A stretch of 64,000 bases of DNA from the IMG/VR virus record IMGVR_UViG_2861229971_000004; one strand, given 5' to 3'. Position 1 is the stretch's first letter. Every line of letters starts with the position of its first letter. A program made the position numbers and the translations under genes. Below the pieces are notes generated by a model that saw only the letters and a program-made list of their open reading frames with translations, ran no database searches and was not told the origin of the DNA. Source of the stretch: a virus. Its lineage: Duplodnaviria > Caudoviricetes. Below are positions 1,187-46,377 of the stretch, one piece after another.

Positions 1187-1408
1187 ATGAAGCTTCTCAC
1201 AGTTCAGGACGTCGCGGACGCGATGAAGGTCTCCGAGAAAACGGTCCGACGACTGATCAAGCGCGGTGATCTTGCCGCCTACAAAGTGGGCGAGCGCGGT
1301 CAACTCCGCGTCAAAGAGTGCGACCTTGAGGGGTACTTGGAGGCGCAGCGAGTGGAGGTCGGATCGACGGGAGAAGCGAATGCGGAAGGGACGGAATCAG
1401 GCGAATGA
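1187..1408 (+). CDS. Excisionase-like HTH DNA-binding protein (HTH_17 type)
   Basis: LLTVQDVADAMKVSEKTVRRLIKRGDLAAYKVG...LRV; GAGGA RBS; stop overlaps the next start (ATGA). Confidence 0.85.
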   Translation: MKLLTVQDVADAMKVSEKTVRRLIKRGDLAAYKVGERGQLRVKECDLEGYLEAQRVEVGSTGEANAEGTESGE

Positions 1409-2964
1409 ACACCACTAGACAACAGGACTTCTCGATTGTCGCCGTCGACAAGTTCATCCAGGCGACCCGCGACTCGGGGTACAAGGGAACGTCGAATGCT
1501 GTCGCAGAACTTGTCGACAACTCGCTGCAGGCGGGCGCGACCTCAATCACGGTGTCCCTCACGGTGGATGAGGAAGAGGACGGGCGCTCGATCGTCCTAA
1601 CCGTTATCGACAACGGATCTGGCATGGACGCCCAGACCTTGCGGACTGCGCTTCGGTTCGGCGGTAGCACTCGCTTCAACGATCGTGACGGCCTTGGGCG
1701 TTACGGCATGGGTCTGCCGAACAGTTCGTTGAGCCAGGCTAAGCGGGTCACGGTGCATAGTTGGAACTCGAAGCGCGGTCAGGTACTCACTTCCTATCTC
1801 GATCTCGAGATGATTGCGGCCGGGAAACTGACCGAGGTGCCGCAGCCACGTTGGGTCAAACGACCAGAGTTCGTAAATGGATATGAGTCTGGCACCGCCG
1901 TAACTTGGTCGCGCTGCGACCGGCTCGATCACAAGCGCATTTCTACGATCACACGGAAACTCTTGGGGGCTCTGGGGCGGCAGTTCCGACACTTCTTGTG
2001 GAACGGCGTGTCCATCAAGGTGAACGGCGACGCTGTACAGCCCATCGACCCGCTCTTCCTCCACCCTGCCGCGCTGTACAGTGGCGCAACTCAGTTCGCA
2101 GAGGACATGGTCTACGAGGTTGCAGCGAACCCCGACGACCCCAGCATCACCGGTATCGTGAAGGTACGCTTTTCGGAACTGCCTGTCGACGATTGGTCGA
2201 AGTTGAGTAACGAGGAGAAGAGAGCCCGCGGGATCGCTAAGGGTGCGGGCGTATCAATCGTACGTGCGGGGCGCGAGGTGGATTACGGCTGGTTCTTCCT
2301 CGGAGGAAAGCGCCGCGAGAACTACGACGACTGGTGGCGCTGCGAGATCAGGTTCGACCCAATCCTAGACGAGGCGTTTGGCATCACCCACACGAAGCAG
2401 CAAATCCGGCCACGCCTCCACCTCATCGAGGCACTGAGCGCAGATTTGGAGGTGATGGCTCGCGCACTCAATAGCCGCGCGAGAAAGGCACACCTAAATG
2501 CGAAGGTCGCGGAGCGATTCACTAGGTCTGAATACCGCGCAAGCGAGAAGGACGAGATGCTGGCGCCGCTGCCACCGAAGCCGCGGCTCCGCGACAAGAG
2601 GGTCCTCGACGCACTGGGCAAGAAACTGACGTCAACCGAGAGCGCACGCGACAATTGTGGTGGCTCGACTGAATACCGAATCGTCCCTACCGCACTAAAC
2701 GAGACCGCCTTCTTCAACTATGCGCGCGACCAAGGTCGGCTGATCCTCGTGCTAAACCCGGAACACCCATTCTATAAGCTTGTTTACAAGCCTCTGCTTG
2801 AATCGGACAGTCCAAGTGACGAGATCGTGCGATCGCAGATCGACTTACTGCTGCTCGCGGCGGCGCGTGCCGAGGCGCTGCTCGAGAACAAAGAGAGTCT
2901 CAAAGTCGCCGAGCAGTTGCGGGCCGATTGGAGTGACACGCTAGCTACTTTCCTGAACGGTTAG
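1405..2964 (+). CDS. GHKL (MORC/Hsp90/MutL-like) ATPase
   Basis: Bergerat-fold motifs AVAELVDNS, IDNGSGM, GRYGMGL, GTAV at the N-terminus; helical C-terminus. Confidence 0.85.
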   Translation: MNTTRQQDFSIVAVDKFIQATRDSGYKGTSNAVAELVDNSLQAGATSITVSLTVDEEEDGRSIVLTVIDNGSGMDAQTLRTALRFGGSTRFNDRDGLGRYGMGLPNSSLSQAKRVTVHSWNSKRGQVLTSYLDLEMIAAGKLTEVPQPRWVKRPEFVNGYESGTAVTWSRCDRLDHKRISTITRKLLGALGRQFRHFLWNGVSIKVNGDAVQPIDPLFLHPAALYSGATQFAEDMVYEVAANPDDPSITGIVKVRFSELPVDDWSKLSNEEKRARGIAKGAGVSIVRAGREVDYGWFFLGGKRRENYDDWWRCEIRFDPILDEAFGITHTKQQIRPRLHLIEALSADLEVMARALNSRARKAHLNAKVAERFTRSEYRASEKDEMLAPLPPKPRLRDKRVLDALGKKLTSTESARDNCGGSTEYRIVPTALNETAFFNYARDQGRLILVLNPEHPFYKLVYKPLLESDSPSDEIVRSQIDLLLLAAARAEALLENKESLKVAEQLRADWSDTLATFLNG

Positions 2965-2967
2965 AGG

Positions 2968-5019
2968 ATGAGCCGCCAAGCACAAAACAACTGGGTCGTG
3001 CTCTCACCACCACTCCCAGAACGCAGCCCCGCAAAGCAGGCCTTCCGCGCCCATGCGGCAAGTTTGTCAAAACTGCTGAGCGAGGAATGCGACGGCGAGA
3101 ACTTCGATGAGGCTCTCAAGCGCTTACTGCGCGTCCACACCGCAGACGAGCACGATGCCGCCTTACGCGCTGCGTTGTGCGTCTTGACCGACCTGGCTCG
3201 GCAGCGCTGGTCCATCCGGGTCAACGAGGAACGCGGCGTCGAGGTGAAGCGCCCCGCAGAAAATCAACTCGACCCTTTGCGCGAGAAGGCGCGCATCCGA
3301 GCCCAGGAACTCATCAAGCGCGATGAGCAACTTCGAGAACCCGCGGCGAGGCGGTTCATTAAGGGGATGGAGCAGAAGTCCTTCCACAATGGGAATTTAG
3401 TGTCGATTTACTCGGTCATTCGGGACGGGCGAGAACTCGCGGAGTCGCTCCGCGCCGCGCGCGCACTAAAAGGCGAAGATCGCGTTCGCGCGTTGAGGGA
3501 GGTGATCAATCCCTACCTCCAATTCGTCGACGGGGCCGAGTACTGCGAGCACACCGGGCTCCGTCTGCAAGACATCTGGCGATACTTCCGCCACACATGG
3601 ACGAACCAGTACACGGCCACACCTGGGCGCTCAATGGCCTTCCTAATCCGAGACCGCGCGCGGGAGTACCACCCAGTCATAGGGATCGGGTCTCTCGGGA
3701 GCCCAATTGTGCAAATCCGCGAGCGCGATGCCTGGATAGGCTGGCAACCAGAGGCGTTCTTAGAGTTCGCTAGCGAGTCGCCGTCCGCAGAACTCGGGAT
3801 TTGGCTCCACAAAACGGTGGAAACAGCTATTGGCGAGATCTACCTCGACGACTTTTTTGAGGAAGAACTGCTGTCTCCGCTCGACCTCCGCACTCCGACG
3901 CCGGAGGTCCTTCGGGATCTGTCCGCTTTCGGGGAGAACCAGCGGGAACTCCACCATCGACTTGCCAGTTCGAAGGATCTGAAGCGCTCAACAAAGCGCG
4001 ACGATACGGGCAGCACTGATGCGCACTGGAAGGCGCGTGCACGGACACACCTCTACCGCAGCAAACGAGCGCTCTCACTGGTGGACATGCTCCGATCGCG
4101 CATGGTTCTTCAGCAGCACCTGTCGTCGCCGCCAACTAGCGAAGAAGTGCGCGCGCTGCTCAACACGAGCGATGGGCGCAGGATAGTGAAGAACATCCTG
4201 CGGAAAGCCAAGGCCGACCGCGTCGGTATCGCGATGGCGGACATAACGGTTTGCGGCTCGGTAGCCCCATATAACCTGATCCTCGGGGGGAAACTCGTCT
4301 CGATGCTCGCAGCCAGCCCGGAGGTCGTGACCGCCTACCGCAACAAGTATCTAGCGCAAGAGAGCGAAATCGCTTCCTCGATGGCGGGACGGCCGATTAT
4401 CCGGCGATCAGAACTCGTGTTCCTAGGGACGACTTCGCTCTACGGGATCGGATCCAGCCAATACAACAGGTTGCGGATGCCGGCCGAGCGCATCGGTGGC
4501 AAGAAAGGCGAGAAACTCGCGTTTCTTGAACTTGGTAAGTCAGACGCCTATGGGACTTCGCAATTTAGTTCGGACACGGTCAGAGCCCTCGTCTCTCTGG
4601 TCCAGCAGTCAAGTAACGGCCAACGTGTCAACAGCATTTTCGGCGAGGGCGTGAGCCCAAAACTCCGGAAGATCCGAGATGGGCTCGACGCGCTCAAACT
4701 TCCGACCGACGTGCTCCTCCAGCACGGACGGCAGCGCATCGTGTATGGCGTTCCAGTCGTAAGAAACCTTCGCGAGTTCCTCCTCGGAATGGATAATGAG
4801 CCTGAGTACTGCTTCGACTTGAACGAACCAGAACGCAGCACTGGGGAGATTGGCCGCTGGTGGACAGAGCGTTGGTTGAGAAATCGCATCGAATCCGACG
4901 ACGTCTTGGCGAGGATAGAACAACATACTCTAGTCCGACCTATCCGCCACGGGGCGCGGGTCGTGCTCCCTAATATCGACGACGGTCAGGCGACCCTTTT
5001 TGAAGAGTTCACATACTAG
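2968..5019 (+). CDS. druA: Druantia DruA-like protein (DUF4338-type)
   Basis: Recognised segments IGIGSLGSPIVQIRERDAWIGW, ADITVCGSVAPYNLILGGKLV, LGTTSLYG and FGEGVSPKLR. A DruE-like helicase lies in the same island. Confidence 0.7.
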   Translation: MSRQAQNNWVVLSPPLPERSPAKQAFRAHAASLSKLLSEECDGENFDEALKRLLRVHTADEHDAALRAALCVLTDLARQRWSIRVNEERGVEVKRPAENQLDPLREKARIRAQELIKRDEQLREPAARRFIKGMEQKSFHNGNLVSIYSVIRDGRELAESLRAARALKGEDRVRALREVINPYLQFVDGAEYCEHTGLRLQDIWRYFRHTWTNQYTATPGRSMAFLIRDRAREYHPVIGIGSLGSPIVQIRERDAWIGWQPEAFLEFASESPSAELGIWLHKTVETAIGEIYLDDFFEEELLSPLDLRTPTPEVLRDLSAFGENQRELHHRLASSKDLKRSTKRDDTGSTDAHWKARARTHLYRSKRALSLVDMLRSRMVLQQHLSSPPTSEEVRALLNTSDGRRIVKNILRKAKADRVGIAMADITVCGSVAPYNLILGGKLVSMLAASPEVVTAYRNKYLAQESEIASSMAGRPIIRRSELVFLGTTSLYGIGSSQYNRLRMPAERIGGKKGEKLAFLELGKSDAYGTSQFSSDTVRALVSLVQQSSNGQRVNSIFGEGVSPKLRKIRDGLDALKLPTDVLLQHGRQRIVYGVPVVRNLREFLLGMDNEPEYCFDLNEPERSTGEIGRWWTERWLRNRIESDDVLARIEQHTLVRPIRHGARVVLPNIDDGQATLFEEFTY

Positions 5020-5310
5020 CGCTGAGCAACTATGGCCCACGAGGTCCCACAACCAAGCTTTAAGCATTACAGTGCCTTGCGTGCTGCGCCGCTATCGCGT
5101 TCCAGAAAAGCATTGTCGGCTGTTCGACCGCCTATGAAAGCCAGTTCGCCGCCGGAGAGGACGAGATGCTCTTAAAGATTGCGAACGAGGGCAACTGGCG
5201 CGCGAGCGAGCGCGTCTCCAGCCACGCTGCATCTGCGTCGTGCGACGAATGCCCGAAATTGCTCCGTGCTCACTGCGCTGTTCGGAAAAACCTATCGCGC
5301 GGCGGGCCCA

Positions 5311-8300
5311 ATGCTTGAGACGCACAACAGACTCGACGAGAGGTACCGCACGCTCCGGGATTCAAGAACGGGGCCGGTCTTCTTTCTCGAGCACGGGTTA
5401 AGTGAAGACGAGGTCACTGACGTCTTCGCGAACGTTAGCCATGTCTTAAGCACGCACCCGATTGAAAGCGGATGGTGGCGCACCAACTGCCTCCCACTGC
5501 TCGTCGCGGCCACAGAGGTCGGGTACCGCTATAGAGGGTCAGGGACTGACTTTTGGCCGGTATTTGAGGCCAAACTCGGCCTGCGTATCAGTGCGCCTGA
5601 TCGACATCACATTCGCGATCTCTTCGCCAGCGCTGCAAAGACCTACCGAGGTGCGCAGCCGCCAGCTACCCCGTGGGCCGACGCCTTCCGCTTCATCGCC
5701 TGGCCAATCACTCACGCGCTTGTGCCTCTTGAGTTCCATCGTCCGCTCGCGCTCACGCTTGCGAACCTGCGCGTGAACGTCGGCGAACTCGATGACGATG
5801 GTCTGCACCGCGCAATCCGAATTGTTGCTTCCAACTCTTCGGCGCGGTTCGCGACTTTGCTCGAGGACGCAACTCTGGTGGTAGCCGTGACGAGAAGGTT
5901 GTTGGGTGACGACAGTGCCGAACTCTGTCCCCAGACGATGGAGCGTATCGCAACTGACCTCGCCTCCGACCAAATCGCTCGGCGCGCAGTTGCGGTCGCT
6001 CGCCGGAGACAACGCACTGTCGCGCAGCGAAAGACACCTGCCGCATCATCGTGGCTGCAACTTCCATCGATCGCAGGTTCGCTCACAATCCGACGCCAAG
6101 ACAGTTCAATGACGCTCCAGGCCGCCTTTCCACAAGTGGAAGCGGACCTGCAAGGGAAACTCCGTCGAGCGCTGCGCCGTCGCCGATACGCCGCACGTCT
6201 GTGGGGCGTATCAGGGCCGGTTCCCAGTGAACAGTTGCTCTCCGGGCTCCCCTTCACGCTCAAGTTAACGTCAGTCCCGTCAGAGGTTGCGGAACTCTTT
6301 CCAGACCTCGGCCAGGTAGAAATCGACCAGGAACTTCGCGACGTACTTGCCACCTTCGAACTGAACATCGCGTGCCCCTTGCTATTCGCCGTTGACTCCG
6401 ATGAAGAAATTGGACGTCGGGTTCACGGTCCGAGTATCTCTGGCCACCGCAAGTATTGGCTCCTCTCCCCGTCAGGCGAGGGCCCTTCGGGTTTCGCAGC
6501 CCTGAGGGACGTTGGGCCGTACGACTGCTATCTGCTAGACCCCGCGGAAGAGATCGCACGGAAGGTTCTGCGCGAACTTGGATTTCATGTGCACTTCGGC
6601 ATCTCAGTTGAATTTGCAGGCAGACCTCCGCTTGAACGCGATGCGCCGGTTCCGGTCTTCGTGGTCGGCGACCAACGGACTGTGGTGCCTCGACGTGTTC
6701 CGCCAGAGGGCTTGAGTGTCCAGTTGGACGACGAACAGGTCCATCTTTCGAGCGACGACGTCGTGACCGTTAGAGTTGAGCGAGGTGACCATACGCTGCG
6801 GGTGTCGAACGGTAGTGAGGACCGCGATTACACGTTCCGCGGGACGCTAGCGCCTCGATCTGTGCCGCCCACGATCTGCTCAATAGAACCGCGTTTCGGT
6901 GACCTGACAGTCCAGGCGTTCTTGCGCGGCGCGCTCGAATTCGCCGTCGAGAGTTTTGCCCCGCTCGACGGCCTGGAACTTACAGTTGAGATCGATGCCA
7001 GCGGTCGAAGGCTCTTTGCCACCGCCCCGCTCGGCCCTCTCCCCTGCTCGGTTTCCTCGGAGCAGGAGCCCTTCGCGACGCTACTTGATGACGAGACTCG
7101 TGGGCTACTGGCGCGGTCTCCCTCGCTCAAACTGCGGCTCAGCGTGGGGAACCTATGCTCACACTATATGATGTTGGAGCAGCGCGTGCGGCCCTGTTGG
7201 TGGCAGCGAACTGACGACGGTACGATTGCCCTCACAAGCGAAGTCGGGATGCTCCCCTTCGGCTGGGTGCTGGCGACCACTCCAGCGGCTCCGCCAGCGC
7301 CGGAACTCGACGACTCGCACGAAGAGGCGCGACTGCTCGCACCGATCGGGCTTGACGTCTCGGAGCACGGCGGGGTCGCCGAGTTCACCACGCTCTGCAT
7401 CGCTCCCTCGCATGCGCGACTAGGGTTACCCGCTATCAAGAAGCCGATCCTCACCAGACGCCGTTACGCTGGAAATGGCGCGCTCGGCCTCGAGGACATG
7501 GTCGAGAGTTACCTAAGATGGTCCCTCGCCGAAAGTACTACGTTCATCGCCGAGATATGGCGCCGGCAGATCGCCGCGGTACTGGACGGATGGCTAACAG
7601 AAATCTGCTGCGGCGAGGAGTGGGTGCGTCGCGAGGCGGCGCTGGGCGATGTGGACCCGTGGGAAGAATTGGCCCGAGACTGCGACGAGACAGGCTTCGG
7701 ACGTGACTCGTATGTCGAACTCTCGCGCGAGGACGAGGTTGAGGTGACACGCATCGCCATCCGAGAGATTCGGTCTGAGTTCCCAGACCTCTGGGCGCGC
7801 GTCGGCCCGCTTTGCGCCCTGAGCCAGGAAGACTATGAGGCGCTCGATCTGGCCTGCGCCCGCGCGTATACAGAACTTGCCGATAAGTACCGAAATAAAG
7901 GTAAGGAGGACTTCGCCACAGGGATTGCAGAGGGCGACCCCGGCGCGGCGCCAGACGACTGGGACTCCGTCCTTAGACGCGTAAAGTCTACGGCAGAACT
8001 TCAGCCGCTCGCCGAAATGCTTCTCCCATCCGACACCGCTCATGGGCTCATGACGCTCGAACCGTCCATGATGACGCTAGACGAACTTACCGAGGAACTC
8101 ACCGCGTGGGCCCGAAGCGCGAGGAGAGCGCTTTCCGGGAGCGTGCCGCCAAGCGACACCCTCAAGGTAATCCTCGCGCTGTGGGCCGAGCCCGAGGCCG
8201 CCGCAAGCCTGGACTGGCGCCGCGCACTTGACGTGCTGCTCGCTGAGCGGTCCGTTGCTCGCGCTGCACGATACTTGGCCCTGCGAAGTCGACGGGCGGC

Positions 8301-8322
8301 CCGAGGAAGTAGCAGCAGATGA
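5311..8322 (+). CDS. Large hypothetical protein (~1003 aa) of the defence island
   Basis: Long ORF with island-type codon usage; likely ATG at 5311; TGA overlaps the start of the SNF2 gene. N-terminal FWPVFEAKLG...IAWPITHA segment; no motif I can name. Confidence 0.7.
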   Translation: MLETHNRLDERYRTLRDSRTGPVFFLEHGLSEDEVTDVFANVSHVLSTHPIESGWWRTNCLPLLVAATEVGYRYRGSGTDFWPVFEAKLGLRISAPDRHHIRDLFASAAKTYRGAQPPATPWADAFRFIAWPITHALVPLEFHRPLALTLANLRVNVGELDDDGLHRAIRIVASNSSARFATLLEDATLVVAVTRRLLGDDSAELCPQTMERIATDLASDQIARRAVAVARRRQRTVAQRKTPAASSWLQLPSIAGSLTIRRQDSSMTLQAAFPQVEADLQGKLRRALRRRRYAARLWGVSGPVPSEQLLSGLPFTLKLTSVPSEVAELFPDLGQVEIDQELRDVLATFELNIACPLLFAVDSDEEIGRRVHGPSISGHRKYWLLSPSGEGPSGFAALRDVGPYDCYLLDPAEEIARKVLRELGFHVHFGISVEFAGRPPLERDAPVPVFVVGDQRTVVPRRVPPEGLSVQLDDEQVHLSSDDVVTVRVERGDHTLRVSNGSEDRDYTFRGTLAPRSVPPTICSIEPRFGDLTVQAFLRGALEFAVESFAPLDGLELTVEIDASGRRLFATAPLGPLPCSVSSEQEPFATLLDDETRGLLARSPSLKLRLSVGNLCSHYMMLEQRVRPCWWQRTDDGTIALTSEVGMLPFGWVLATTPAAPPAPELDDSHEEARLLAPIGLDVSEHGGVAEFTTLCIAPSHARLGLPAIKKPILTRRRYAGNGALGLEDMVESYLRWSLAESTTFIAEIWRRQIAAVLDGWLTEICCGEEWVRREAALGDVDPWEELARDCDETGFGRDSYVELSREDEVEVTRIAIREIRSEFPDLWARVGPLCALSQEDYEALDLACARAYTELADKYRNKGKEDFATGIAEGDPGAAPDDWDSVLRRVKSTAELQPLAEMLLPSDTAHGLMTLEPSMMTLDELTEELTAWARSARRALSGSVPPSDTLKVILALWAEPEAAASLDWRRALDVLLAERSVARAARYLALRSRRAARGSSSR

Positions 8323-11300
8323 GAAACATTTACGTCGACCTGTGTCTACAAATTCAAGCCGTCCGGCGCGATTTCGAACGCATCCGGACGCCGCTTGCTC
8401 CCGCAGTCGGCATAGCTGCATCGCTCTACACACATCAGGTCGCGAACGTGCATAGGGTGCTGACGGACGTAAGGGTTAGGCATCTGCTTGCCGATGAGGT
8501 TGGGCTCGGCAAGACCGTCCAAGCTCTGATGGTGCTGAACGCGCTTCGGAGCCAGAGGGCTGACCTGCAAGTACTGATCATGGTGCCCGATCAACTTGTC
8601 ACTCAGTGGCGCGACGAGATCATGACGCGAGCTCATACCGCACCGTTCGGGGAACACGACGCAGCCGAGGGCAGGCAGTATATCCGCTTGGCTTGGGAGG
8701 AGCAGTTCGGGATGCGTGACGCCGCGGGCAACCCGAAGTTCGCGCTCTCTGACATCGACCCCGACCGCTTCGATGTCCTCGTAGTTGATGAACTCCATCG
8801 CTTGCGCGCAGATGTCCAGGACCGGATTGTTCGCGTCGCTGCCCGCTTCGAGCACGTACTGGCGCTCACGGCGACGCCCGCCTTCCAGCACGTCAAGCGA
8901 CATGCGCAGCTATTCGCGTTGCTAGAGCCGGAGCGGGCCTCGCTGGCGCGAGGAAGAATCTCCACCGGAGATCGCGGAGTTGCCGAAGGTCTGGCGGCTG
9001 GCGACGACGTCTCTAAGTGGCCCGAATGGGCTGCGGCCGCCGTGGTCAATGAGTTTATCGAGGCTGATCGCACCGCGGCGTCCGCCTCAGTGCATTCCAG
9101 CCTTTGCACTGCGGCGCTAGCTCATTGCGCGTACCGTAGGGTCATTCGAACGAGACGGGTGGATTACAGCGGCGTGCTCCCTCGCCGCTGTCACCGGCCG
9201 CTTGTCGTCGAGCCTCTCGGCGCGGAAGTTGAGCGACAGTCCTTGATGTGGCAGTACTTCGAACACCTCGGCGATCTGAGCCGGGAATTCGATTCAGTAC
9301 GTCTCGCGAAACGTGTTGTCCTCAGCCCACCGTCGCTCGAGCAGCGCGTAGACTTCCTCCGGCGAAGAGGGCACGAGCGCGCTGGCCTGCTTGAGCGCGT
9401 CAAACCGCTCGTTCACCGCAGCCAAGGTGACTCCCGCGCCGATGCCCTCATCGATCTTCTGGCGGAAATCTGGACCGAGGACCCAACTGAACGCGTACTC
9501 GTAGCAGCGCAGGACAACCTGACAGTCGATTATCTCTTTGATCTCGTCCAGGCGCGACTCTCGGTCGTTGGTCCACTCTCCCAGCGAGTCCCGCTGGTTG
9601 CAGCTCGGGTTCGCCAAGGGATGATGACGGGGGCGGTCGAGGATCTCGGTGGATTTGGCAACGAGACAAACGAGAACCTTGAGGCCTTTCAACGCGGCGA
9701 CGCGCAGGTATTGTTCGCGCCAGAGGCCGTGCAAGTCGGCCTGAATCTCCAATGCGCACGCGTTCTGGTTCTTTACAGTGTCCCGTGGCGCCCCGAGGAA
9801 GTTGAGCAGTGGATCGGCAGGCTCGACAGGATCGGCAACGTCGCCGCCTTCTCGAACGAGGGCGGTGCAAAGACGATCGACGTGTACACCATTGCTCAGC
9901 GTGGCCTCGTCGATGAGAAGGTCGTCACTGTTCTCCAGCGCTTCCATGTCTTTGAGAGAAGTGTGAACCTCGACGGAGACCACCTCGACGAGCTAGCGAG
10001 CCTCATTGAAGACGCCGCGTTACGCCCAAAACGGATCGACTGGCGAGAACTAGCGGACACTACGGAGGAGATGGCGGCCGAAGACGAGGTACAGGAACTC
10101 GCCTCTGCTCTGCGCAAGCACCTCCCTTGGACAGTCGACTTAGCCACCGCTGAGCGCCAGTGGCTGGATTCAATACCTCCCGCTCCTCCTGTCCTCAAAG
10201 CTCTTCCCGAGCACTCGGCGTTAGGCCCCCGAGCGTGGGATCGGGCGCTCGAGGGGATGCTAAGTTTGCTTGACTATGCTGCCGACTACCACATCCGCTG
10301 GAACACAGACCCGGAGACAGGTGGCCGTTTTCGGACGCTGTGGTATCAGTTCGGTGAGAAGGGGATGTACGGTCGGCGAGAGGTCCGGTCGAAGGTGGTT
10401 TTCTCGTTCGGCGCGGATCCATCGCACGAGCGCAGCCCACGACACGCGTACGCATTCATAACTCGTCGCGGTGACATCGGGACTCCCCCTCGGCGGAGCG
10501 TCACCATGGTGCTGGACGGTGACCATGTCCGACGGACTCTTCGGTTCCTCAACTTTGGCGATGCGCTCCACGATGAACTAATTGACGGCTGGTTACCGCA
10601 ACGTAATGGCCTATTGAAGCTGAGCGTCACGTTCTTCGACGATCACAGCGTTTGGCAGTACCGGGCGCCCGGTCTGTACCTTCTTAGGCTGTCCGTCATT
10701 GATCCGGCGGATGCACTCATGGCACGAGGCTTGGAGGAGAGGACACTCGGAGCCGTGGTCCAAGCCGCAACTCTCAGTGAAATTGATCGACTTCCCGATC
10801 TGTTGCGTCCTTTTAGGAAAGTTATGCGTTGCGCGATGGAAGCTGACGTTCGTTGGCTCCGCGCACAGTTCACCGCGTGCATGACCCTCGATTTACGAAG
10901 ACAGGAGCACGGAAATTGGGTCCAGGTCGAAGCCGAGGAGGCTGCGGCGCTCTTCAACCCTATGGCACATGAGCGCAATGGCGTCCCGAGGGCAAGCGAC
11001 CTGCGCAAAGACGGGGCGGACATCGCCTCCGCTGAGGCGGAACTGTCTAGTCAGCGGCAGGCTGACGCGACGGCCGCACGCTCAGCGTGGAGCCATCGCT
11101 TTTCTAACTTTGGGGAGTCGCTCACGGCTCGCTTGGTGGTCGTCGAAGAGGAAGGCCACGATGCGGTCGCAATTGCCACTGAGGAACTGCGTCGGGCTGA
11201 GGCGGCTCTTGAGTTGGCACGGGAGCGAGGCAATCGAGCACAGATCACGCGTGCGGAGAATGCTCGTAATGCCGCTGGGGACACTCTGGGCATGACCCGG

Positions 11301-11411: not shown

Positions 11412-11427
11412 CCGTGGGAGCGTTGGC

Positions 11428-12438
11428 CTAGGTTAGCAGTCGCCACAGGTCGGGGCCCTTCGGGCTCACATCCCATGCCCATGCGCCGCTAGGACTTCCA
11501 AGGATATCCATGGCCGCGCGCAACTGAACCGGCGCCGGGAACGTTAACTGGATCCTGAGCCCGTCTGCACGCACGACCTCCTCGGCGCCGACACGCCTCC
11601 CACGCGCGAGCACAGCCCATCGCCACTCATCCTCGTCGTAGAGGTCAAGCGCCCGCTGACCGTCTCCAGCCACGGCGACGATGCATGGGTGCCAGTGAGT
11701 GTCTCCGTAGCCGCGGCGATAGGCACACCACAGCCCCTCTCCCGGATCTGTCGTCCACCTACCCTCAGGCTGCGCCGAGTTGTGACGGCCGAAGAAATCT
11801 CCTGGACGCCCCCCTAGAAAACGCACCTCAGCGTCAGCACTGACCGTCAGTCCTTCCTCGGTCAGTGCCTCCTCAAGTAAGTCCCAGAATCGGCCGAGCG
11901 TGACCGCGTCGCTCCTCGCAGGCTGCCGCATTCGCCTACTTGCGTGACGAAGGTAGCCTGGAGGCACCAACCACTCCGAGAGCGATACCTCCTGCACCCC
12001 AGCAAGTTCCAAAATAGCGACTTCGTCGTCAGTGCCGACACGAAGTCTGCGAACTATGTCGTGGTTGTCGCTGTCCACCAGCGAGAGTCCATCGGGGGGC
12101 TCCGACACTCCCAGAAAAGCGGAGACACCCTCACCCACTGAGATCCACCTCGGTGTAGTCGGCGCCAAATAGAGTTCGTGCCCAACGTAAACCTCTTCGC
12201 ATTCGCCTATATCGACAAGCCGCCGTAGGACGCGTGGGATATCGCTAACGTCTTCAACGCCGCTGGCCCGGAACTCGGCGCGTGCGTGCTTGACAACATC
12301 TCGCTTGGGACTCAGCCCCCAGCGGCTCAGCGGCGCGCGCACAATATTTGCGATTGCACGTTCGCTCGGCCTCCCCTCGGCATCGAGGTAGCCAAACTGG
12401 GTGCTGAGTTGGGCACGAGACTGCGTTCGAAGTCTCAT
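11428..12438 (-). CDS. Hypothetical protein (~336 aa), last gene of the DruE operon
   Basis: ORF starts 2 nt after the stop of the NERD-helicase gene (ATG at 12438). Trp-rich C-terminal half; no named motif. Confidence 0.65.
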   Translation of the reverse strand: MRLRTQSRAQLSTQFGYLDAEGRPSERAIANIVRAPLSRWGLSPKRDVVKHARAEFRASGVEDVSDIPRVLRRLVDIGECEEVYVGHELYLAPTTPRWISVGEGVSAFLGVSEPPDGLSLVDSDNHDIVRRLRVGTDDEVAILELAGVQEVSLSEWLVPPGYLRHASRRMRQPARSDAVTLGRFWDLLEEALTEEGLTVSADAEVRFLGGRPGDFFGRHNSAQPEGRWTTDPGEGLWCAYRRGYGDTHWHPCIVAVAGDGQRALDLYDEDEWRWAVLARGRRVGAEEVVRADGLRIQLTFPAPVQLRAAMDILGSPSGAWAWDVSPKGPDLWRLLT

Positions 12439-12440
12439 GC

Positions 12441-14171
12441 CTACGCCTCGGAAACTGATTGGGCCGCTGTTATAACCTCGCGACACTGGTCCCCATGCAC
12501 GACCGCGATCAGCAGCACCTTAGCGCGTGTGCACGCGACGTAGAGGTCCTCCCTTCGGAACAGTCGGCCAAAACCGTCGAGATCATACAGCACGACCACC
12601 TCGGCCTCGAGTCCCTTGAATGAGCGGGCCGTGGTTACGAGTATACCCCCACCGTCGCGCCACTCCTCCGCTGACATAACTAGAGGTACGCCATCAATGT
12701 CCGTCAGGTCTGACAGACTACCGTTCTCCTTGGCTGCAGGTCCTATCACCGCGATCTGTCTAGGCGCCACGTCCTCCCGCTGCAACAACGACCGTAGTTC
12801 CTGAATTACCAACCCCTTTTGCTGCCTAGAGGAATTGGCGCGGAGCACTCGCAGAGCACTCCCCTGGGGTGCACGCGGGAATATGTGACACTCTAGATTG
12901 AGAACCGAGGCGCTCGCCAAGGCGATCCGCCTTGTATTTCGGCAGTTGATCGTCAACTTGAAGCGCGCTGCAAATTCGACATCAGGCCACTGCACTTCAC
13001 CGCGAAGCGACTGATTGGGATCTATGAAGGCATAAAGGGGGCCATCTGCCTCCGACAGAAGCGACTGTGTCAGCGTGTACCACCAGCCCAACGAGAAGTC
13101 TTGCGCCTCGTCCACGACAATGGCGTCGAAGTGGATCTCGCGACCCTCCATGGCGAGATCGACAATGGCCTGCTCCATGAGGTCAGGGACTTCGTCGTTC
13201 CAGAATGCCTCCGTTCGAGCGCCACCAGCCGCAGGGCGGAAATCTAAGCCCGCCTCAGTTGCAAGTTCCGCGGCGAGACCATGGAAATGCTTGACCGTCA
13301 GCAAATCGCGGAAGTCGGCCGTACTCGGATCTTCCTGCACCTGTCGCCGAATCCAGGCCGCGAGTTCCTTGTTGAAGCAGACGAACAGGGTCTTCATACC
13401 CTCGCGCGCGAAAGCTAGCGCCCGATGTATCGCGAGGAACGTCTTACCAGACCCAGCCACTCCCTCAACCAGCACCCGGTCTTGGACGTAGAGACCGGTG
13501 AACACTTGGGCCTGTGTCTCGGTAAGTTCGAGCAACTGGTTGGCCACCAGTTCAATATCCGGGCCTACGGGCCTGAAGACCCTGAACTTGGGCATCAGGC
13601 AGTCGTTCACCAGCATCGTGTATCGATCGCGAGGAAGCAATCGCGGTTCATCGGTCCAAGCCGCGAATGCAGTCTCGATTGCCTGTGCCATGAAGGGGAG
13701 ATTGCGCCGAGAGATCACGATGGCCTTGTCGGCGTGAGGTGGCGGCAAACCCTCGTAGTCTAGGTGTGGGAAGACAACCGCATAACCATGTACGAGGTCC
13801 TGCTTTCGGATCCGTTCTCCCGATCGCTCTCGTACGATTTCCAAAAGCGCGTGCATGTTGCGCTGCGCCTGCCTAAACGGGTCTTGGAACTCGTCCGGCC
13901 CGGTCTTTGTGTCGCGGAACCATCGGTAGCCATCGTAGCGGATCGTATCCCCTCCCTTGACCTCGAGGATGAGAAGACCGCGGGAAGGGTGGAGCACGAC
14001 AAAATCCGCTTCGCCTTCGGCAAGAGCCTTGCTGCGCCACGGGCGAAGCCACGGATAGGAATGTAGAACGATATAATCGTCGCCCAACTGGTCGCGTAGC
14101 GCGACATATACAGGTTCCTCGGAGGCGTGCTGGAGTTGGGAAGGATCAACGTCGGGCAGCATCCGGGCCAT
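12441..14171 (-). CDS. NERD nuclease fused to a UvrD-like SF1 helicase
   Basis: GEADFVVLHP..GLLILEVKGG (NERD/PD-(D/E)XK), GVAGSGKT, VDEAQD, SFKGLE, LYVACTRAK; start overlaps the DruE stop (TAATG). Confidence 0.85.
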   Translation of the reverse strand: MARMLPDVDPSQLQHASEEPVYVALRDQLGDDYIVLHSYPWLRPWRSKALAEGEADFVVLHPSRGLLILEVKGGDTIRYDGYRWFRDTKTGPDEFQDPFRQAQRNMHALLEIVRERSGERIRKQDLVHGYAVVFPHLDYEGLPPPHADKAIVISRRNLPFMAQAIETAFAAWTDEPRLLPRDRYTMLVNDCLMPKFRVFRPVGPDIELVANQLLELTETQAQVFTGLYVQDRVLVEGVAGSGKTFLAIHRALAFAREGMKTLFVCFNKELAAWIRRQVQEDPSTADFRDLLTVKHFHGLAAELATEAGLDFRPAAGGARTEAFWNDEVPDLMEQAIVDLAMEGREIHFDAIVVDEAQDFSLGWWYTLTQSLLSEADGPLYAFIDPNQSLRGEVQWPDVEFAARFKLTINCRNTRRIALASASVLNLECHIFPRAPQGSALRVLRANSSRQQKGLVIQELRSLLQREDVAPRQIAVIGPAAKENGSLSDLTDIDGVPLVMSAEEWRDGGGILVTTARSFKGLEAEVVVLYDLDGFGRLFRREDLYVACTRAKVLLIAVVHGDQCREVITAAQSVSEA

Positions 14172-17100
14172 TACGCCTCTCCCAACTTGTGGAGGACACC
14201 GTTTACGAACACGCCAAACGCTCTCCCTAGGACGCTCACGTCCTGGGCCCGCGGCGTCTCCGAGCGGGGCGCGACATGGGATAGATACAGGACACTCACC
14301 TTGTCCTTCCGGAGGCGCGGCAAGCCAAAGGTCCAGCGGTCGTTTGTGGCGTTGAAGGCCCCAGCCTTGCTGACAAGCAAGCGAGGCGTGTGGTCTTTGT
14401 TGCCGACTACGAAGTCATCCTGATGCGTCGGTGTGAAGACCACCCAAGCCCCCGCGGCGAACTCACTATTTCCCATTCGCTCCAGCGTGGGGCGTGCTAG
14501 CTGAACGATGAACGATCCCGATGGGGCACCGCCAACCGCCACCCTAGCGAGCGGCTCTGGCTGCTCGTCGGTAGCGAGAGAGGCCAAGTCGTAGACGGGG
14601 CAGCCGTCGTCTTCTGAGGGGAGAAACGCAGGTAGCGTGAATCCAGAGTTGCCGCCTGTTTTTGCCCCAGTGGCCTCCCGAACCGCTGCTGGGAGTGCTC
14701 TGTCCACGAGCAACTTATCCACTACGACGTGAGGCGCTCCGCTCGCGATGAGTGCTCTGCCGGTCGCTGAGCCGGCCGCGCCGGGCGTCATCGGATGCCC
14801 GAGCACCACGATCCGACCCGAGAGGTCCAACAGCCTTAGTCCCCCCTCTAGCCGCTCCACTGTATGTCCCGACTCAGTCAGGTCCACCTCTAGCGCTTGA
14901 AGGAGGCGTTCTTCGTCATCGGTCCCGAGTGTAGGCGCTTCACCATGAATGACGTGGCGAATGAATGCCGCGCCCAAGTTGCGGTCGAGATACTTGTGGT
15001 CCCACTTGTTCTTGTAGCTGCGCAGGCACTCGTAGCAGGAATGCGTGCAGTCACAGGACTCCAAGCGCGTGAGGGCCTCCTCGAAGAGCCTTTTCGGATC
15101 TGCGGCCGCAGAGCGCACAAACCCGGCGCCGCCCGGTGTGAGGTCATAAAGGTATACCTCGACTTCGTTCCCCGTCCGGCCTCCGCTTGTCATCGCCACG
15201 CGGAACTCAGCGCCGATATCAGACTCTTCTATGTCCATGATCATTGCCGCTGCGGAGGCAAGCGCCTCCGCGACGGTGGTGAGCACAATCTTGGCCACGA
15301 CCGACCCCGGCGGTAGGGCGACAGCGCCGGCCAATTGAAAGCGGAATAGAGCGATGTCCGTCTCAAACTCATTGCCTAGGACCACCACCGTGGGGGTACC
15401 GTTGCAACTCGCGCCATGCGGATGATGGTCTGGGTTTGGACGAGGGTGACCGCCCCGCTGGAAGCGGCCGGCAGCCCACCCGTTCGGCTCTGCTCGACCG
15501 CACTTCGGGCAATAGAGGAAGCCCGGCTTCATCTGATCATGGGAGCCCGTGTTCGTTAGAACGAGCCGCTGCTTGGCAGTCCAGATTTCGTAGCCTGCGC
15601 CGTTGGTTGCAATGTCCGACCTTTCGGCTGGTCCGCTGTCGGTGAAGGGCGCGCTCAGTTTCGCGCGGGTCGGCCTTGTGGGAGTGGGGCTGTCATCTAG
15701 GGGGAGCTCAGCGTCGAGGTCGACCGGATGGGCGAAGCCCGGCGGACGAAGCCAGCGCGTACCGACCCCTAGGGAACCGCCAGAACCACAGGCTGGGCAG
15801 TCTAGAACTTGGCCAACATAGTGTTCGTCGCTCCTCTGCTCGACGCGAGCGTAACCGCAGCGGTCGCACTCGAAGTAGACTTTCATGCCGAACCACGCCT
15901 GCCAGCAGTCCCGGCGGTTGAATGGCGTCCAGATGGCGAACGAGTAGTGGCGCTCACCGTTCACCCAAACCTCTCGACCTGGCGCATAGCCCGATAGCGC
16001 TTGGTTGAGACCGAGTTGCGGAGAGTACTTGAGGACTGCCTTGCGCTCGGTACTCGCGGCCGGATCAAAGACGTGAAAGGTCACCACATCAGTAGGGAAC
16101 GCGTATCGTGGGAGCACCCCACGATCAAAGAGACGATCCAGCAACTTCTCCGGATCGAGCCCTCCGTCGGGCGCGTCCTCGGTCCGATCAACGTCCGCCG
16201 AGGTGTGCGCTGCTTCAGGTGCGCCGGTATCGACCGCATCGAAGTCTACGTCGTCACCCCAGCCCATCATTAGCGTGCCACGGGCAGCTTGTGCCTCCTC
16301 CCCGCCACCTTCCGCGACGAGTTCCTCGACGGCGGGTGAGAACTGATCCTCCACCTCCGATGCCTCCAACGGGCCGGCGCCCACCTCGCGCAGTGCGGAC
16401 AGCAGCGCCAAAGGCACGTCGTCCACGAACCCTGGTGCCGCAGCAACAACGGACGCAGGGACGATCTCCTCTAACGCACCGCGGACTCGGGCCGCCTCTC
16501 GATTGAGCCATGCCTTGAGGCCGGCGTAGGAGAACTCCATCGCATCTCCGGTCCGGAAGTCCTGCAGCATTCCGAGGCTCTCGAAGACGTTGGAACTGAC
16601 GCTTTCGTCGTCGGGATCGGCGATCGCGGCCATCTGGAACATGCTCATCACGAGCGCGAAGCAGTGCCGGCGAATGATCTCAAGGTTGTCCAGGTTCAGC
16701 GTCGGGTCAGGCACTGGGCCGCTAACCATCGCTGCGGGGTGCGAGTAGAACTCCTGGTCATGGCTGTCCGCGCCGCAGTAGGTAATTACGGTCGAGAGAG
16801 CAGAGCCCCGGCGACCGGCCCGGCCGGCACGTTGCTGGTAATTTGCCCGCCCAGGCGGCACGTTGCGCAAGGCTACAGCCGTGAGGCTGCCAATGTCGAT
16901 GCCGACTTCCATCGTCGTCGTGCATGACAGAACGTCGATAGGGCCGTCGCGCCGCCCCTCCGGACCCTCAACGTCGAGATCTTGGAACCTCAGTTCATGC
17001 CATTCCGCTCGCGCCACTGCGCCGCTGTTGCTGCTGTCGTTGAGCGCAGCGGAGTGCTCGGCGGCGACGTATGGGTGGGGCGCGTAATCGGGCTCGGCCG

Positions 17101-20100
17101 CGAGCCTCTCCACATGTCGGCGGAAGTGCCCCTTTCGCGACCGGAACACGGTGTCGGTCGCAGGATCTAGCGCGCTAGTCGTGCCGGTGCAGACCCTGTG
17201 GCCCGGACGAACGCGGCAGCGATCGGCGGCGAGCGGGTTGAACGGCTGGGCTGTGGTGCACGTATCGCAGCGGCGCCACTCGATTTCCTCTGTAACCACT
17301 CGGAGCTTGGCGGCCCTCAGTATAAATCCATTGGCGGTCTCGTTGGTCCCGAAGACCTTCGAGAGGAACTTCCCCCATTCCGACGGCGCCCCTGTTCGTC
17401 CTTTGAGGTTTGCGTTGAACCACTTCGTACCGACGAAATCCTTCACGAACGATGGAAACGTCGCCTTTGTGCGCCGTATCTTCGCCCCTGTGCTAGCGTC
17501 GAGCCACTCGCTCGGCGTGGTGGGCAGATACAATGCGTGACTAAGGACCGCGTCGTTCAGCCAAAGATCAAGCAGCGCCCAACGGCGCTCTTCCTCGCTA
17601 AGGTGACCGGGCTCAGGCGGCGCCGGCAACTTCTGGAACGCTCGCAGGTCTGTTGGGTCGAGCGAGGCGCGGATTGTCGCCAAGCCAAGGGCGCTGAGCC
17701 CGGTATGTGGGTCCTTCAGCACCGGATAGAGCGCGAGCATCAGGGCCTTATTTGTGCGGTGCGTGTTCAGTTCCGCTGACCTGCTGCGGATTTCCTGCTC
17801 CGTGGTTGGCGGGGCGCTAGTCAGCAACTCCCGGAATAGAGCAAGATCCTCCTCGAAGTGCGGCGCCTGAGCGGGGCGCAGGGTGACACCGTTCATGGCG
17901 CAGCCTGTCAGGAGGGCGGCGTAGGCATGGTCGAGTGTCACCGGACCTCCGAAACGCTGCTCTAGCCGGCTCAACCCGTCTAGGAGCAGCGGCCGCACCG
18001 CGTCGCGCATCGAATACTGTTGAAGTTTCCCGGCAAGCCGTGAGGCTGCTTGTCGCCCGTCGGAGAAGATGAGTGCTTTGCGCCCCTTGAGCGGAGTGTC
18101 GACCTCTTGGCGCGGGGGCTGCTCGAGGACCTGCGAGGAAACGATCTCCTGGAACGGCTCATCGCCTTTCGTCACATGGTCCATTATGTGGTCTGAACCG
18201 TCCGCTCCGCAGCGGAGGCAGTTTTGAAACTCTCCGGGGCTCGTGTCCTTTTGCCCAAGAGGCGGGAGCCATATCTCACGAGCTGCGTCGTTCCCTGATC
18301 CTACGCGGCCAGACACCGGATCCAGGTACTCGAACCGCGCTCCTGAGCCTGCGGGAGGTTCCTCCAGTGAGAGAAATACGGGCTGGACGACCCCGTCCAC
18401 GCCGTCCACTTCACCGATATCCTCTGCCCACAGATAGTCGGGAGTGCCGGGATCGAACGAATAGGCCTTAAAGTATGCGCAGCCACACGACCGGCACGTG
18501 TAAACTTCGAACACCCGCGCTCCACACTCGCATGTCCGACGAGGCTGAGCGTAAAGCGCTCCAGTCGGCGGTAATGTGTCCCAACGCTCTCGCTGAGAGT
18601 CGGAGACATGGGAGCACTGCGGATCCGAGCATGCCCATAAGCCCGGGAGCCCTCGAAAGAATGCATGGGCGCGAGCAGCTAGGAGTGGTGCCTGCTTGCT
18701 GTCAGGCTTCGCCATGGAAGTGAGTTCAACCAAGGCGTTAGTGGCAACGCGGGCAAGATCAGCCTCAACTTCCGGAAAGAGCCGTGAGGCCAGTTCTCCG
18801 ATCTCCTGAGCCGGTCCCACGCCTGCAGAGTCACGTTCGAGGTCTTCGTCGGCTACCGCGCCGCTTGTGAGGTTCACGAGGCGACCGGTCACCGGGAACT
18901 GCTTGAGCGCGCGGTGGAGAGCCCTCCCCAACGGATCTCCGTCAGGCGACGCGCTTGCCTCGTCCAGCAGGGACTCAGACGAGACTTGATCGTCTGCCAA
19001 CTGAAGAACCGGCATGACCGCGTCAAGACGAGCCGCCAGGTCGCCTTCGTAGACCCGGCGGAGGTCCACTCCCGCTAGCGTCTCCGCAACTCGCCTGTCG
19101 CCGGGCCCGGAGGGATGAGACGCGCGCTTCGTCCCTCTAAGAACCTCAAATCCTTCTGGAGGCTTGCCCGCGAGGTCAGCGGCGAACTTCTTTGCCGCTG
19201 AAGGATCTGAAAACGACGCGCTCGTACAGATGACCTGCAACTGCTCCGGACGAAGTGCCAGTCGGTTACGTAGGCGGCGGATCAACATCGCCACCTCAGT
19301 CCCCTGTGCGCCCCTGTAAAGGTGGGCCTCGTCCAAAATGAGGATCAGCCGCTCTTCTGGATGATCCGCATAGTACTCGGCGGTCACCCTGAAGATGTCC
19401 CGTTCAATGGGACGAAGGAGCATGTACTCCAGCATCGAGTAATTGGTGACAAGGAGATCAGGAACCCCCTCCTGCGCCTCGTGCCGCAGGAATAGTTCTG
19501 GATCCTCTGGACGCTCGACAGTACGGACCCACTCGTCACCTCGCTTCCAAGCGCCCTTGCCCAGCCAGGCGCTCATGCCGTCCTCGCAATCCGGACTGGT
19601 TGGCGGCTTCGCTGGCCATTTGCCGCGGCGCCGCAACTCGCCGATCAAGCGTTTCACGTCGGCATCAGAAGCTGCGCGATCTTCGAGTTTCGTGAAGAAC
19701 TCGAGCGGCTCTTTTAAGCGCGTCCAGTGCTTTTTAGTGTCCTCCCTGCGGCTGCCTGGGTACAGGGTCCGCCCCGTATAGCGAGCGAACTTCATTGGGC
19801 GCCCACCTTTGTCAGTGAACCAGCGTGCGACGTTGTTGTCGCCGAAGAGCACACGCAAGCGGCCGAGTTGATCGTTGACCAGCGCGTTCATCGGGTAGAG
19901 GAGTAACGCCCGAACGGCGCGCGTCGAGAACGAGCTCCCGCTCATAGCCTCCTCCGCCATTCGGCCCAATATCGGGAGGAGGAAGGTCTCAGTCTTGCCC
20001 GAACCAGTTCCGGTCGTCACGACGAGGTCACGGAACGGTGGTGTAAGCGCGAGTTCGAGAGCATGCGCCTGGTGGTCGTACGGCGGATCGAAAATAACCC

Positions 20101-20335
20101 CTCGCTCGCCGAGCCATCTTAGAAGGCCCGCCACATCCGACGGAAGCGAAAGTTCCTCATAACGTCGCGAAGCTGCGTACCTCGCGGTGCTCTCTAGGTA
20201 GGGTGTCTGCGCAATGGCCCCACTCCGAGAGAGCAATTCATCTCGTAGATCGACCAAGGCGGGGTTCGAAATGTGGTAGGTGGAAGTAATGTAGGTGCGG
20301 AGCGCGTCCGAATAATGCTGGAGTTCTTCGTACAC
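14171..20335 (-). CDS. druE: DruE-like DEAD/DEAH helicase with Zn clusters and a DUF1998 (MZB) domain, 2054 aa
   Basis: TGTGSGKT, LYPMNALVNDQ, DEAH, TTTMEVGIDIG, QQRAGRAGRR, several CxxC pairs, and the CDCTHSCYECL DUF1998 signature. GTG start after a GAGGA RBS. Confidence 0.85.
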   Translation of the reverse strand: MYEELQHYSDALRTYITSTYHISNPALVDLRDELLSRSGAIAQTPYLESTARYAASRRYEELSLPSDVAGLLRWLGERGVIFDPPYDHQAHALELALTPPFRDLVVTTGTGSGKTETFLLPILGRMAEEAMSGSSFSTRAVRALLLYPMNALVNDQLGRLRVLFGDNNVARWFTDKGGRPMKFARYTGRTLYPGSRREDTKKHWTRLKEPLEFFTKLEDRAASDADVKRLIGELRRRGKWPAKPPTSPDCEDGMSAWLGKGAWKRGDEWVRTVERPEDPELFLRHEAQEGVPDLLVTNYSMLEYMLLRPIERDIFRVTAEYYADHPEERLILILDEAHLYRGAQGTEVAMLIRRLRNRLALRPEQLQVICTSASFSDPSAAKKFAADLAGKPPEGFEVLRGTKRASHPSGPGDRRVAETLAGVDLRRVYEGDLAARLDAVMPVLQLADDQVSSESLLDEASASPDGDPLGRALHRALKQFPVTGRLVNLTSGAVADEDLERDSAGVGPAQEIGELASRLFPEVEADLARVATNALVELTSMAKPDSKQAPLLAARAHAFFRGLPGLWACSDPQCSHVSDSQRERWDTLPPTGALYAQPRRTCECGARVFEVYTCRSCGCAYFKAYSFDPGTPDYLWAEDIGEVDGVDGVVQPVFLSLEEPPAGSGARFEYLDPVSGRVGSGNDAAREIWLPPLGQKDTSPGEFQNCLRCGADGSDHIMDHVTKGDEPFQEIVSSQVLEQPPRQEVDTPLKGRKALIFSDGRQAASRLAGKLQQYSMRDAVRPLLLDGLSRLEQRFGGPVTLDHAYAALLTGCAMNGVTLRPAQAPHFEEDLALFRELLTSAPPTTEQEIRSRSAELNTHRTNKALMLALYPVLKDPHTGLSALGLATIRASLDPTDLRAFQKLPAPPEPGHLSEEERRWALLDLWLNDAVLSHALYLPTTPSEWLDASTGAKIRRTKATFPSFVKDFVGTKWFNANLKGRTGAPSEWGKFLSKVFGTNETANGFILRAAKLRVVTEEIEWRRCDTCTTAQPFNPLAADRCRVRPGHRVCTGTTSALDPATDTVFRSRKGHFRRHVERLAAEPDYAPHPYVAAEHSAALNDSSNSGAVARAEWHELRFQDLDVEGPEGRRDGPIDVLSCTTTMEVGIDIGSLTAVALRNVPPGRANYQQRAGRAGRRGSALSTVITYCGADSHDQEFYSHPAAMVSGPVPDPTLNLDNLEIIRRHCFALVMSMFQMAAIADPDDESVSSNVFESLGMLQDFRTGDAMEFSYAGLKAWLNREAARVRGALEEIVPASVVAAAPGFVDDVPLALLSALREVGAGPLEASEVEDQFSPAVEELVAEGGGEEAQAARGTLMMGWGDDVDFDAVDTGAPEAAHTSADVDRTEDAPDGGLDPEKLLDRLFDRGVLPRYAFPTDVVTFHVFDPAASTERKAVLKYSPQLGLNQALSGYAPGREVWVNGERHYSFAIWTPFNRRDCWQAWFGMKVYFECDRCGYARVEQRSDEHYVGQVLDCPACGSGGSLGVGTRWLRPPGFAHPVDLDAELPLDDSPTPTRPTRAKLSAPFTDSGPAERSDIATNGAGYEIWTAKQRLVLTNTGSHDQMKPGFLYCPKCGRAEPNGWAAGRFQRGGHPRPNPDHHPHGASCNGTPTVVVLGNEFETDIALFRFQLAGAVALPPGSVVAKIVLTTVAEALASAAAMIMDIEESDIGAEFRVAMTSGGRTGNEVEVYLYDLTPGGAGFVRSAAADPKRLFEEALTRLESCDCTHSCYECLRSYKNKWDHKYLDRNLGAAFIRHVIHGEAPTLGTDDEERLLQALEVDLTESGHTVERLEGGLRLLDLSGRIVVLGHPMTPGAAGSATGRALIASGAPHVVVDKLLVDRALPAAVREATGAKTGGNSGFTLPAFLPSEDDGCPVYDLASLATDEQPEPLARVAVGGAPSGSFIVQLARPTLERMGNSEFAAGAWVVFTPTHQDDFVVGNKDHTPRLLVSKAGAFNATNDRWTFGLPRLRKDKVSVLYLSHVAPRSETPRAQDVSVLGRAFGVFVNGVLHKLGEA

Positions 20336-20337
20336 CT

Positions 20338-20544
20338 TTAATCCTCGCTGCCTCGCAAAACACTAGCGGCTTCATTGGCGCCGCCCTGACGGACCCACCG
20401 ATCGACATCTGCCAGCTTAAGCTTCCAGTGCCGGCCAACGCGGTACGCAGGAAGACCCTTCGTTTCGATCCAACGGTAGATAGTGTCCCGTGAGATACCG
20501 AGATGCTCAGCGACATCTGTCACGGAGACCCAACGATCGCTCAT
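20338..20544 (-). CDS. Excisionase-like HTH DNA-binding protein (68 aa)
   Basis: MSDRWVSVTDVAEHLGISRDTIYRWIETKGLPAYRVGRHWKLK from the ATG at 20544; stop is 2 nt before the DruE start. Confidence 0.85.
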   Translation of the reverse strand: MSDRWVSVTDVAEHLGISRDTIYRWIETKGLPAYRVGRHWKLKLADVDRWVRQGGANEAASVLRGSED

Positions 20545-46376: not shown

Positions 46377-46377
46377 G

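Follow-up and report, generated by a model that had tools for sequence, protein, structure and literature searches.

The 64,000-nucleotide virus record IMGVR_UViG_2861229971_000004 (Duplodnaviria; Caudoviricetes; the whole stretch is referred to below as the window) carries a nine-gene cassette at positions 1187-20544, a span of about 19.4 kb. Comparison with related loci (given L numbers below) shows that seven of these genes, those encoding a GHKL ATPase, DruA, a 1003-residue protein, an SNF2 ATPase, a DruD-like protein, a NERD-UvrD nuclease-helicase and DruE, form one co-inherited cassette. In all likelihood the cassette defends against mobile DNA. Our preferred reading, to which we give even confidence, is that it represents an expanded Druantia type I subtype that would attack incoming phage or plasmid DNA directly and that a prophage carries at its tail end as cargo. 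What is new here is that a Druantia type I core has fixed SNF2 and NERD-UvrD partners and a near-fixed GHKL partner. Mechanistic work has dealt mainly with Druantia type III, whereas type I is potent and has accessory genes and a methylase-free mark of its own. As a natural variant the cassette is conserved and widespread; it has a nuclease that can be identified, a candidate modifier and versions from which genes have been lost naturally (L029, L030 and L047).

Conservation and phylogenetic placement

The nine genes are arranged as two tightly coupled operons, a left arm on the plus strand and a right arm on the minus strand, which converge with their stop codons 16 bp apart. The original prediction, made from the sequence alone, had listed the nine genes with their domains. 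All nine open reading frames are open at those coordinates, and the domains called with PADLOC, Pfam and NCBIfam models agree with it (scores were read with family cut-offs where given, e.g., 610 bits for DrmD, 500 for DpdE and 80 for MADS1). It had also treated the two arms as one system, and they do occur together elsewhere. The 336-residue DruD-like protein has 161 homologous clusters, for which the fetched DNA yielded 51 loci; among the 48 whose flanks were long enough, an SNF2 gene converges on the DruD-like gene in 46, many of these being redundant samples. All seven core genes, and thus both arms, are present in about 20 loci (roughly 16 independent), including those of Corallococcus, Roseococcus and Arsenicitalea, with the head-to-head order kept at identities down to 27-47%. 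Distant versions share 40-48% identity in DruE and 22-27% in the 1003-residue protein. Plasmids of Leisingera and Paracoccus retain all seven genes with the GHKL-druA pair relocated in front of druE. Pairwise protein distances of left-arm and right-arm core genes are closely correlated (rho 0.92-0.95).

The type I affiliation is evident in DruE (14171-20335, minus strand; 2054 residues), a YprA-family superfamily 2 helicase with DEAD, Helicase_C and MZB/DUF1998 domains. It matches the type I model PDLC00013 with 1453 bits (E 0), compared with 568 for DruE2 and 553 for DruE3 (about 560 for types II-IV), and has relatives in the PDB (9tu7 and 9wae). In a quick maximum-likelihood tree, 13 cassette DruE proteins form one group (Shimodaira-Hasegawa-like approximate likelihood ratio test, SH-aLRT, 99) that is sister to the DruE of druA-X-druD-druE operons (99). 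Canonical DruABCDE branches next (96), and a type III sequence falls outside. This placement makes the cassette a derived branch of Druantia type I and not a bridge to DISARM. A C-terminal extension of about 200 residues (14171-14710) is particular to the cassette DruE group; it has no match in Pfam, and by eye it resembles an inactive S24/LexA-type barrel.

When four methyltransferases were used as tblastn queries, none was found in the cassette, nor in the fetched flanks of the 51 related loci, in agreement with the original prediction. The lack does not distinguish the cassette, since canonical type I also has no methylase and yet leaves an adenine mark on host DNA (Ojima 2024; 10.1101/2024.04.14.589459). 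Type I defends, and a phage can exploit its DNA mark to escape (10.1101/2024.04.14.589459).

The DruD-like and 1003-residue proteins

Two proteins left as unknowns by the original prediction turn out to be of Druantia type. The 336-residue protein (11428-12438, minus strand) has no direct match itself to DruD or to other PADLOC, Pfam or NCBIfam models. Nevertheless, 21 of 76 members of its family match DruD1 models (best E 5e-6), and the family aligns with four canonical DruD proteins (hhalign 68% probability, E 5e-5; hmmsearch E 5e-4). Its predicted structure has an N-terminal winged helix (fold matches of Z 9-11 at residues 25-95). On the strength of these family matches it is a remote homologue of DruD.

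The 1003-residue protein (5311-8322, plus strand) likewise lacks a direct PADLOC, Pfam or NCBIfam match, and its family comprises 637 representatives at E 1e-10. It aligns over 749 columns (hhalign 99.95%, E 1e-37) with a Nitrosococcus protein of 955 residues that is encoded between druA and druD in a druA-X-druD-druE operon and matches more than 1700 clusters. By this alignment it is homologous to X, the occupant of the druB/druC position in the four-gene type I operon. That variant without DruB and DruC is widespread, and we found no paper naming it. A fusion of DruB and DruC was rejected as the identity of the 1003-residue protein: no member of the family matches DruB1 or DruC1, and profile comparisons were not significant (E 0.05-0.9), whereas control DruB and DruC proteins match their own models strongly, although very remote kinship would escape detection. 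A DruB search in 401 genomes gave no usable matches. The original prediction would have fallen if these unknowns had matched DruB, DruC or DruD so that a known model was complete; as a remote DruD and a Druantia-type protein they go part of the way to refuting it, though DruB and DruC themselves are absent and canonical type I stays incomplete. Since PADLOC models miss the 1003/955-residue family and the divergent DruD, such loci are under-called.

The structure predicted for the 1003-residue protein (92.8 in pLDDT, the predicted local distance difference test) has a helical N-terminal domain, immunoglobulin (Ig)-like middle domains and a helical C-terminal domain, which is the domain order of DruH, with its helical ends and Ig-like core (10.64898/2026.05.13.724313). 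DruH residues R22, K28, E64 and E220 are essential for defence (10.64898/2026.05.13.724313), and the family conserves R19, E27/H28, E69 and R212/D216, spaced like them, in at least 90 of 96 sequences. In the Atlas, 10-20% of the members of its structural neighbours carry YjiT_N, the DruH/YjiT N-terminal family. Fold searches with the model returned generic Ig-like matches only, from a structure library (to April 2026) that contained no DruH. We consider the chances about even that the protein is DruH-like. On a Nostoc plasmid (L073, 2137-12258), genes for 967-residue, 307-residue and DruE-like proteins occur without druA; the 967-residue protein matches the N-domain profile of the 1003/955-residue family weakly (E 0.04).

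The SNF2 and NERD-UvrD motors

Together with the GHKL ATPase and DruE, the SNF2 and NERD-UvrD proteins make up the four different nucleoside triphosphatases (NTPases) that had been noticed from the sequence, and the catalytic motifs of all four are indeed conserved across loci. The SNF2 protein (8319-11411, plus strand; 1030 residues; SNF2 and Helicase_C domains) is a RapA-like ATPase of the BrxHII/DpdE/DrmD/ArmA type. Its best score, against DpdE, is 153 bits of the 500 at the cut-off, and against DrmD it reaches 104 versus 610. Partial matches to BrxHII/RapA for SNF2 and to GajB for the UvrD-like helicase hold at the family level only.

The 576-residue NERD-UvrD protein (12441-14171, minus strand) is a PD-(D/E)xK nuclease domain (NERD E 6e-12) fused to a superfamily 1 helicase with UvrD motifs, and its catalytic residues are conserved in 41 loci. 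Its best PADLOC match is the reverse transcriptase-associated NERD-helicase model (E 2e-61). In L005, about 1.5 kb separates druE from a reverse transcriptase gene (1-540) upstream of it. For type I DruE an inactive C-terminal nuclease has been predicted (PMC12458937), and for this reason we propose NERD as the cutter; NERD-UvrD is likely the effector.

DruA and the GHKL ATPase

DruA (2968-5019, plus strand) matches the long DruA1 model PDLC00001 from end to end (E 3e-206) as well as the Pfam DruA family (E 1e-29). At 683 residues it is long, compared with about 410 in canonical Druantia type I. The gene directly preceding it, with which it pairs, encodes a 519-residue GHKL ATPase of the MORC/MutL type (1405-2964, plus strand; HATPase_c_3 E 7e-24), which matches MzaB in the N-terminal part only and far below the cut-off. 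In several loci a second, paralogous GHKL ATPase of about 600-640 residues is found upstream of druE or beside the first (L004, 92-1918; L016; L018; L047; L050, 8754-10679). The DruA domain, DUF4338, has been assigned to the GNAT acetyltransferases (PMC10853773), and DruA is a likely self-marker, that is, a candidate modifier of self DNA.

The pair is not constant among the loci. It is replaced in L030 (17138-20854) by a 1238-residue protein with a C-terminal HerA/DUF87 domain; L047 has no DruA within the fetched DNA, DruA is inverted in L042-44, and in L050 and L051 the pair lies upstream of druE. DruA distances also correlate less well with those of the core (rho 0.85-0.87). A Haloplanus plasmid (L071) carries an archaeal type I variant in which a long DruA is paired with an SspF/DndF-like protein; the two are divergent from druE and two further genes, one of them DruD-like. 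All this would suit a five-gene core of DruE, NERD-UvrD and the DruD-like, SNF2 and DruH-like proteins that acts on DNA structure alone as type III does, with GHKL-DruA as a separate accessory module that often accompanies it. This is the main rival to our preferred reading, and we regard it as possible but unlikely. DruA, however, is a defining gene of type I, and most complete loci, rearranged ones included, keep it together with the core. Moreover, L029 keeps GHKL-DruA and has no SNF2 or 1003-residue gene beside its DruD-like gene, so gene loss has not been one-sided. There the GHKL-druA pair converges directly on the DruD-like gene, either by natural deletion or by rearrangement.

The genes of each arm are tightly coupled, as originally described, but the gap of about 290 nucleotides reported after druA turns out to contain the decayed 3' end of an optional Cys-rich gene (about 5163-5309, plus strand; tblastn E about 1e-4, eight gap sequences). 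Eight loci have this gene intact between druA and the 1003-residue gene, encoding 330-350 residues, and L003, L017 and L027 retain other pieces of it; its loss seems to have happened on more than one occasion. Its product is probably like a helix-hairpin-helix (HhH) glycosylase, a lead that comes from its language-model feature neighbours (DUF2400/AGOG/HhH-GPD at 0.92-0.93), while searches of PDB, Pfam and NCBIfam gave no significant match. One could imagine a restriction-modification-like system in which DruA and GHKL place a non-methyl base mark, a glycosylase-like protein takes part in some lineages and the 1003/955-residue family is a distant DruH. We put this forward tentatively, with some doubt; if true, types I and III would be brought together under one scheme, and the adenine mark of type I would be traced to its source.

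GNAT domains have many substrates, and NERD domains have been proposed as suicide back-ups in BREX (PMC12839542), which would be compatible with abortive infection: the motors would detect infection and set a toxic effector free, which could be DruA, acetylating a tRNA or a protein, or else NERD, cutting the DNA of the host. We find this quite improbable, given that cell death is no part of how ARMADA and type III Druantia work and that phage can use the type I DNA mark for escape.

A proposed model for the Druantia-related cassette

Gene content and its conservation are observed directly, and every functional step below is what we infer from them. The proposed division of labour has our confidence to a degree slightly short of even. 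DruA, with a GNAT fold, would mark host DNA in a methyltransferase's stead, helped by the adjacently encoded GHKL ATPase. The DruH-like and winged-helix DruD-like proteins would bind unmarked, forked or single-stranded invader DNA and, once bound, load the 3'-5' helicase DruE, which would unwind it. In type III, DruH engages forked DNA and loads DruE (10.64898/2026.05.13.724313); another group saw no DruE nuclease activity in that type. Cutting would be supplied by the NERD nuclease riding on its UvrD motor, and the RapA-like SNF2 ATPase may clear or remodel DNA-bound proteins.

Several points weigh against this model and the subtype assignment behind it. The distance correlations show joint inheritance and not cooperation. 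The DruE tree is the product of a quick search, with long branches and a midpoint root. The GNAT assignment of DruA is reported in one paper, and a DruA profile found no GNAT or Mom relative among PDB sequences. The GHKL-DruA pair is replaced or moved in L030, L042-44 and L047 and DruA is less closely tied to the other genes, so that the system may be able to do without marking. For the 1003-residue protein, the residue correspondence to DruH is by spacing and not by alignment, and the template modelling (TM) scores of the Atlas neighbours are below 0.4. Repeated comparisons of its sequence profiles with those of DruH gave no significant link.

Regulators and genomic setting

Each operon begins with a small helix-turn-helix (HTH) gene of the excisionase/MAD1-like kind. 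The left one (1187-1408, plus strand; 73 residues; HTH_17 E 1e-13, mad1 E 1e-7) has homologues in L001, L017 and L027, and is probably an autoregulator. At 1091-1104, upstream of the left arm, a perfect palindrome of 14 bp may serve as an operator. The right one (20338-20544, minus strand; 68 residues; HTH_17 E 2e-17, MADS1 65 of 80 bits) is 33% identical to it. Both genes are present in only some loci, and their products may regulate the two operons.

Directly next to the cassette is the last tail gene of the prophage at 20715-62780 (about 20.7-63 kb). This prophage encodes tail, tape measure, head, portal and terminase functions and a serine-type integrase (61452-62780). The G+C content is 59-63% in the cassette region, compared with about 70% in the adjoining prophage and 62.5% in the whole chromosome. 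A tRNA-Ser gene lies just beyond the window end, and a 15-bp copy of its 3' end, beside an open reading frame read as a putative tyrosine integrase, lies 6.1 kb before the window start. Lying next to the prophage and between these two sites, the cassette thus travels as cargo in a composite island about 70 kb long. Two prophage DNA methyltransferases (45195-47763), 25 kb away, were rejected as parts of the system, because the related loci have no methyltransferases within the fetched flanks. On the opposite strand inside the prophage structural region, a 473-residue reading frame (34695-36116) resembles by eye a mercuric reductase-type flavoprotein.

The distribution is patchy: one of 60 other genomes of the genus matches the 336-residue family. 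Such sporadic presence, and carriage as mobile-element cargo, make it very unlikely that this is a DNA repair, anti-plasmid-only or element-maintenance module, even though YprA/MrfA relatives function in repair and UvrD, a MutL-type ATPase and a glycosylase-like gene would also be compatible with it. In addition, DruE falls in a defence branch and has DruA- and DruD-type partners.

Comparison with known systems

The cassette resembles Druantia type I (DruABCDE) in its full-length DruA1 and DruE1 matches, its DruD-like gene, its lack of a methyltransferase and the type I grouping of its DruE. In contrast, one 1003-residue protein stands in the place of DruB and DruC, GHKL, SNF2 and NERD-UvrD are added, DruE is about 200 residues longer, and there are two convergent operons instead of one. 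Strict membership of type I fails because DruB and DruC are undetected. The four-gene druA-X-druD-druE operons (Nitrosococcus watsonii pNWAT01; contig C6) share a sister DruE, a homologous X, DruA and DruD, but have a short DruA, a single operon and none of the three extra NTPases. The one on contig C6 (4513-15269, L069) is a second operon in the same genome, druA(407)-X(954)-druD-like(372)-druE(1854), numbers being residues, followed by a 654-residue gene and a recombinase-like gene.

Type III (DruE-DruH) also combines DruE with a protein of about 1000 residues that has helical ends and an Ig-like core, as predicted for the cassette. However, the cassette DruE scores 553 bits against DruE3 versus 1453 against DruE1, there is no significant sequence match to DruH, and five further core genes are present. 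The type II/IV parts DruM, DruF, DruG and DruL have no PADLOC matches. As for the inactivated McrB-like GTPase of the type IV CoCoNuT reading of Druantia I/II, tblastn gave no match to E. coli McrB/McrC, and the 1003- and 336-residue models gave no McrB-like fold match, though a degenerate form would escape these searches.

DISARM class I likewise places an SNF2 helicase alongside a DUF1998 helicase. The cassette differs in having no methylase and no phospholipase D (PLD) nuclease gene, with none of the DrmA/DrmB split helicase, DrmC or methylase found in it; its helicase is unsplit and of the Druantia branch, and its SNF2 protein is below the DrmD cut-off. The Druantia-DISARM link drawn by the original prediction is consequently weak.

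No description of this gene set was found in the searchable literature (with few subscription papers within reach) or in Bell et al. 2025 and its supplements, of which Table S1 was covered in part, consistent with the claim that it matches no described system. Bell et al. note unstudied diversity in Druantia types I and II (PMC12458937), and the cassette may already sit unnamed in their data. Of the original choice between a new system and a new subtype, what stands is a new variant of Druantia type I, less alien than was claimed.

The nearest architectural parallel is ARMADA type II (PMC12458937), which likewise combines a RapA/BrxHII-like SNF2 protein, a YprA-family helicase and a UvrD/GajB-like helicase in one cassette. 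In ARMADA type II, however, there is a PglX-like methyltransferase, the helicase bears an active Vsr, and ArmD a RelE-like domain. The cassette has no PglX-like methyltransferase; its helicase is DruE1, it has DruA, NERD, GHKL, DruD-like and DruH-like genes, and DruA stands at the methylase's place.

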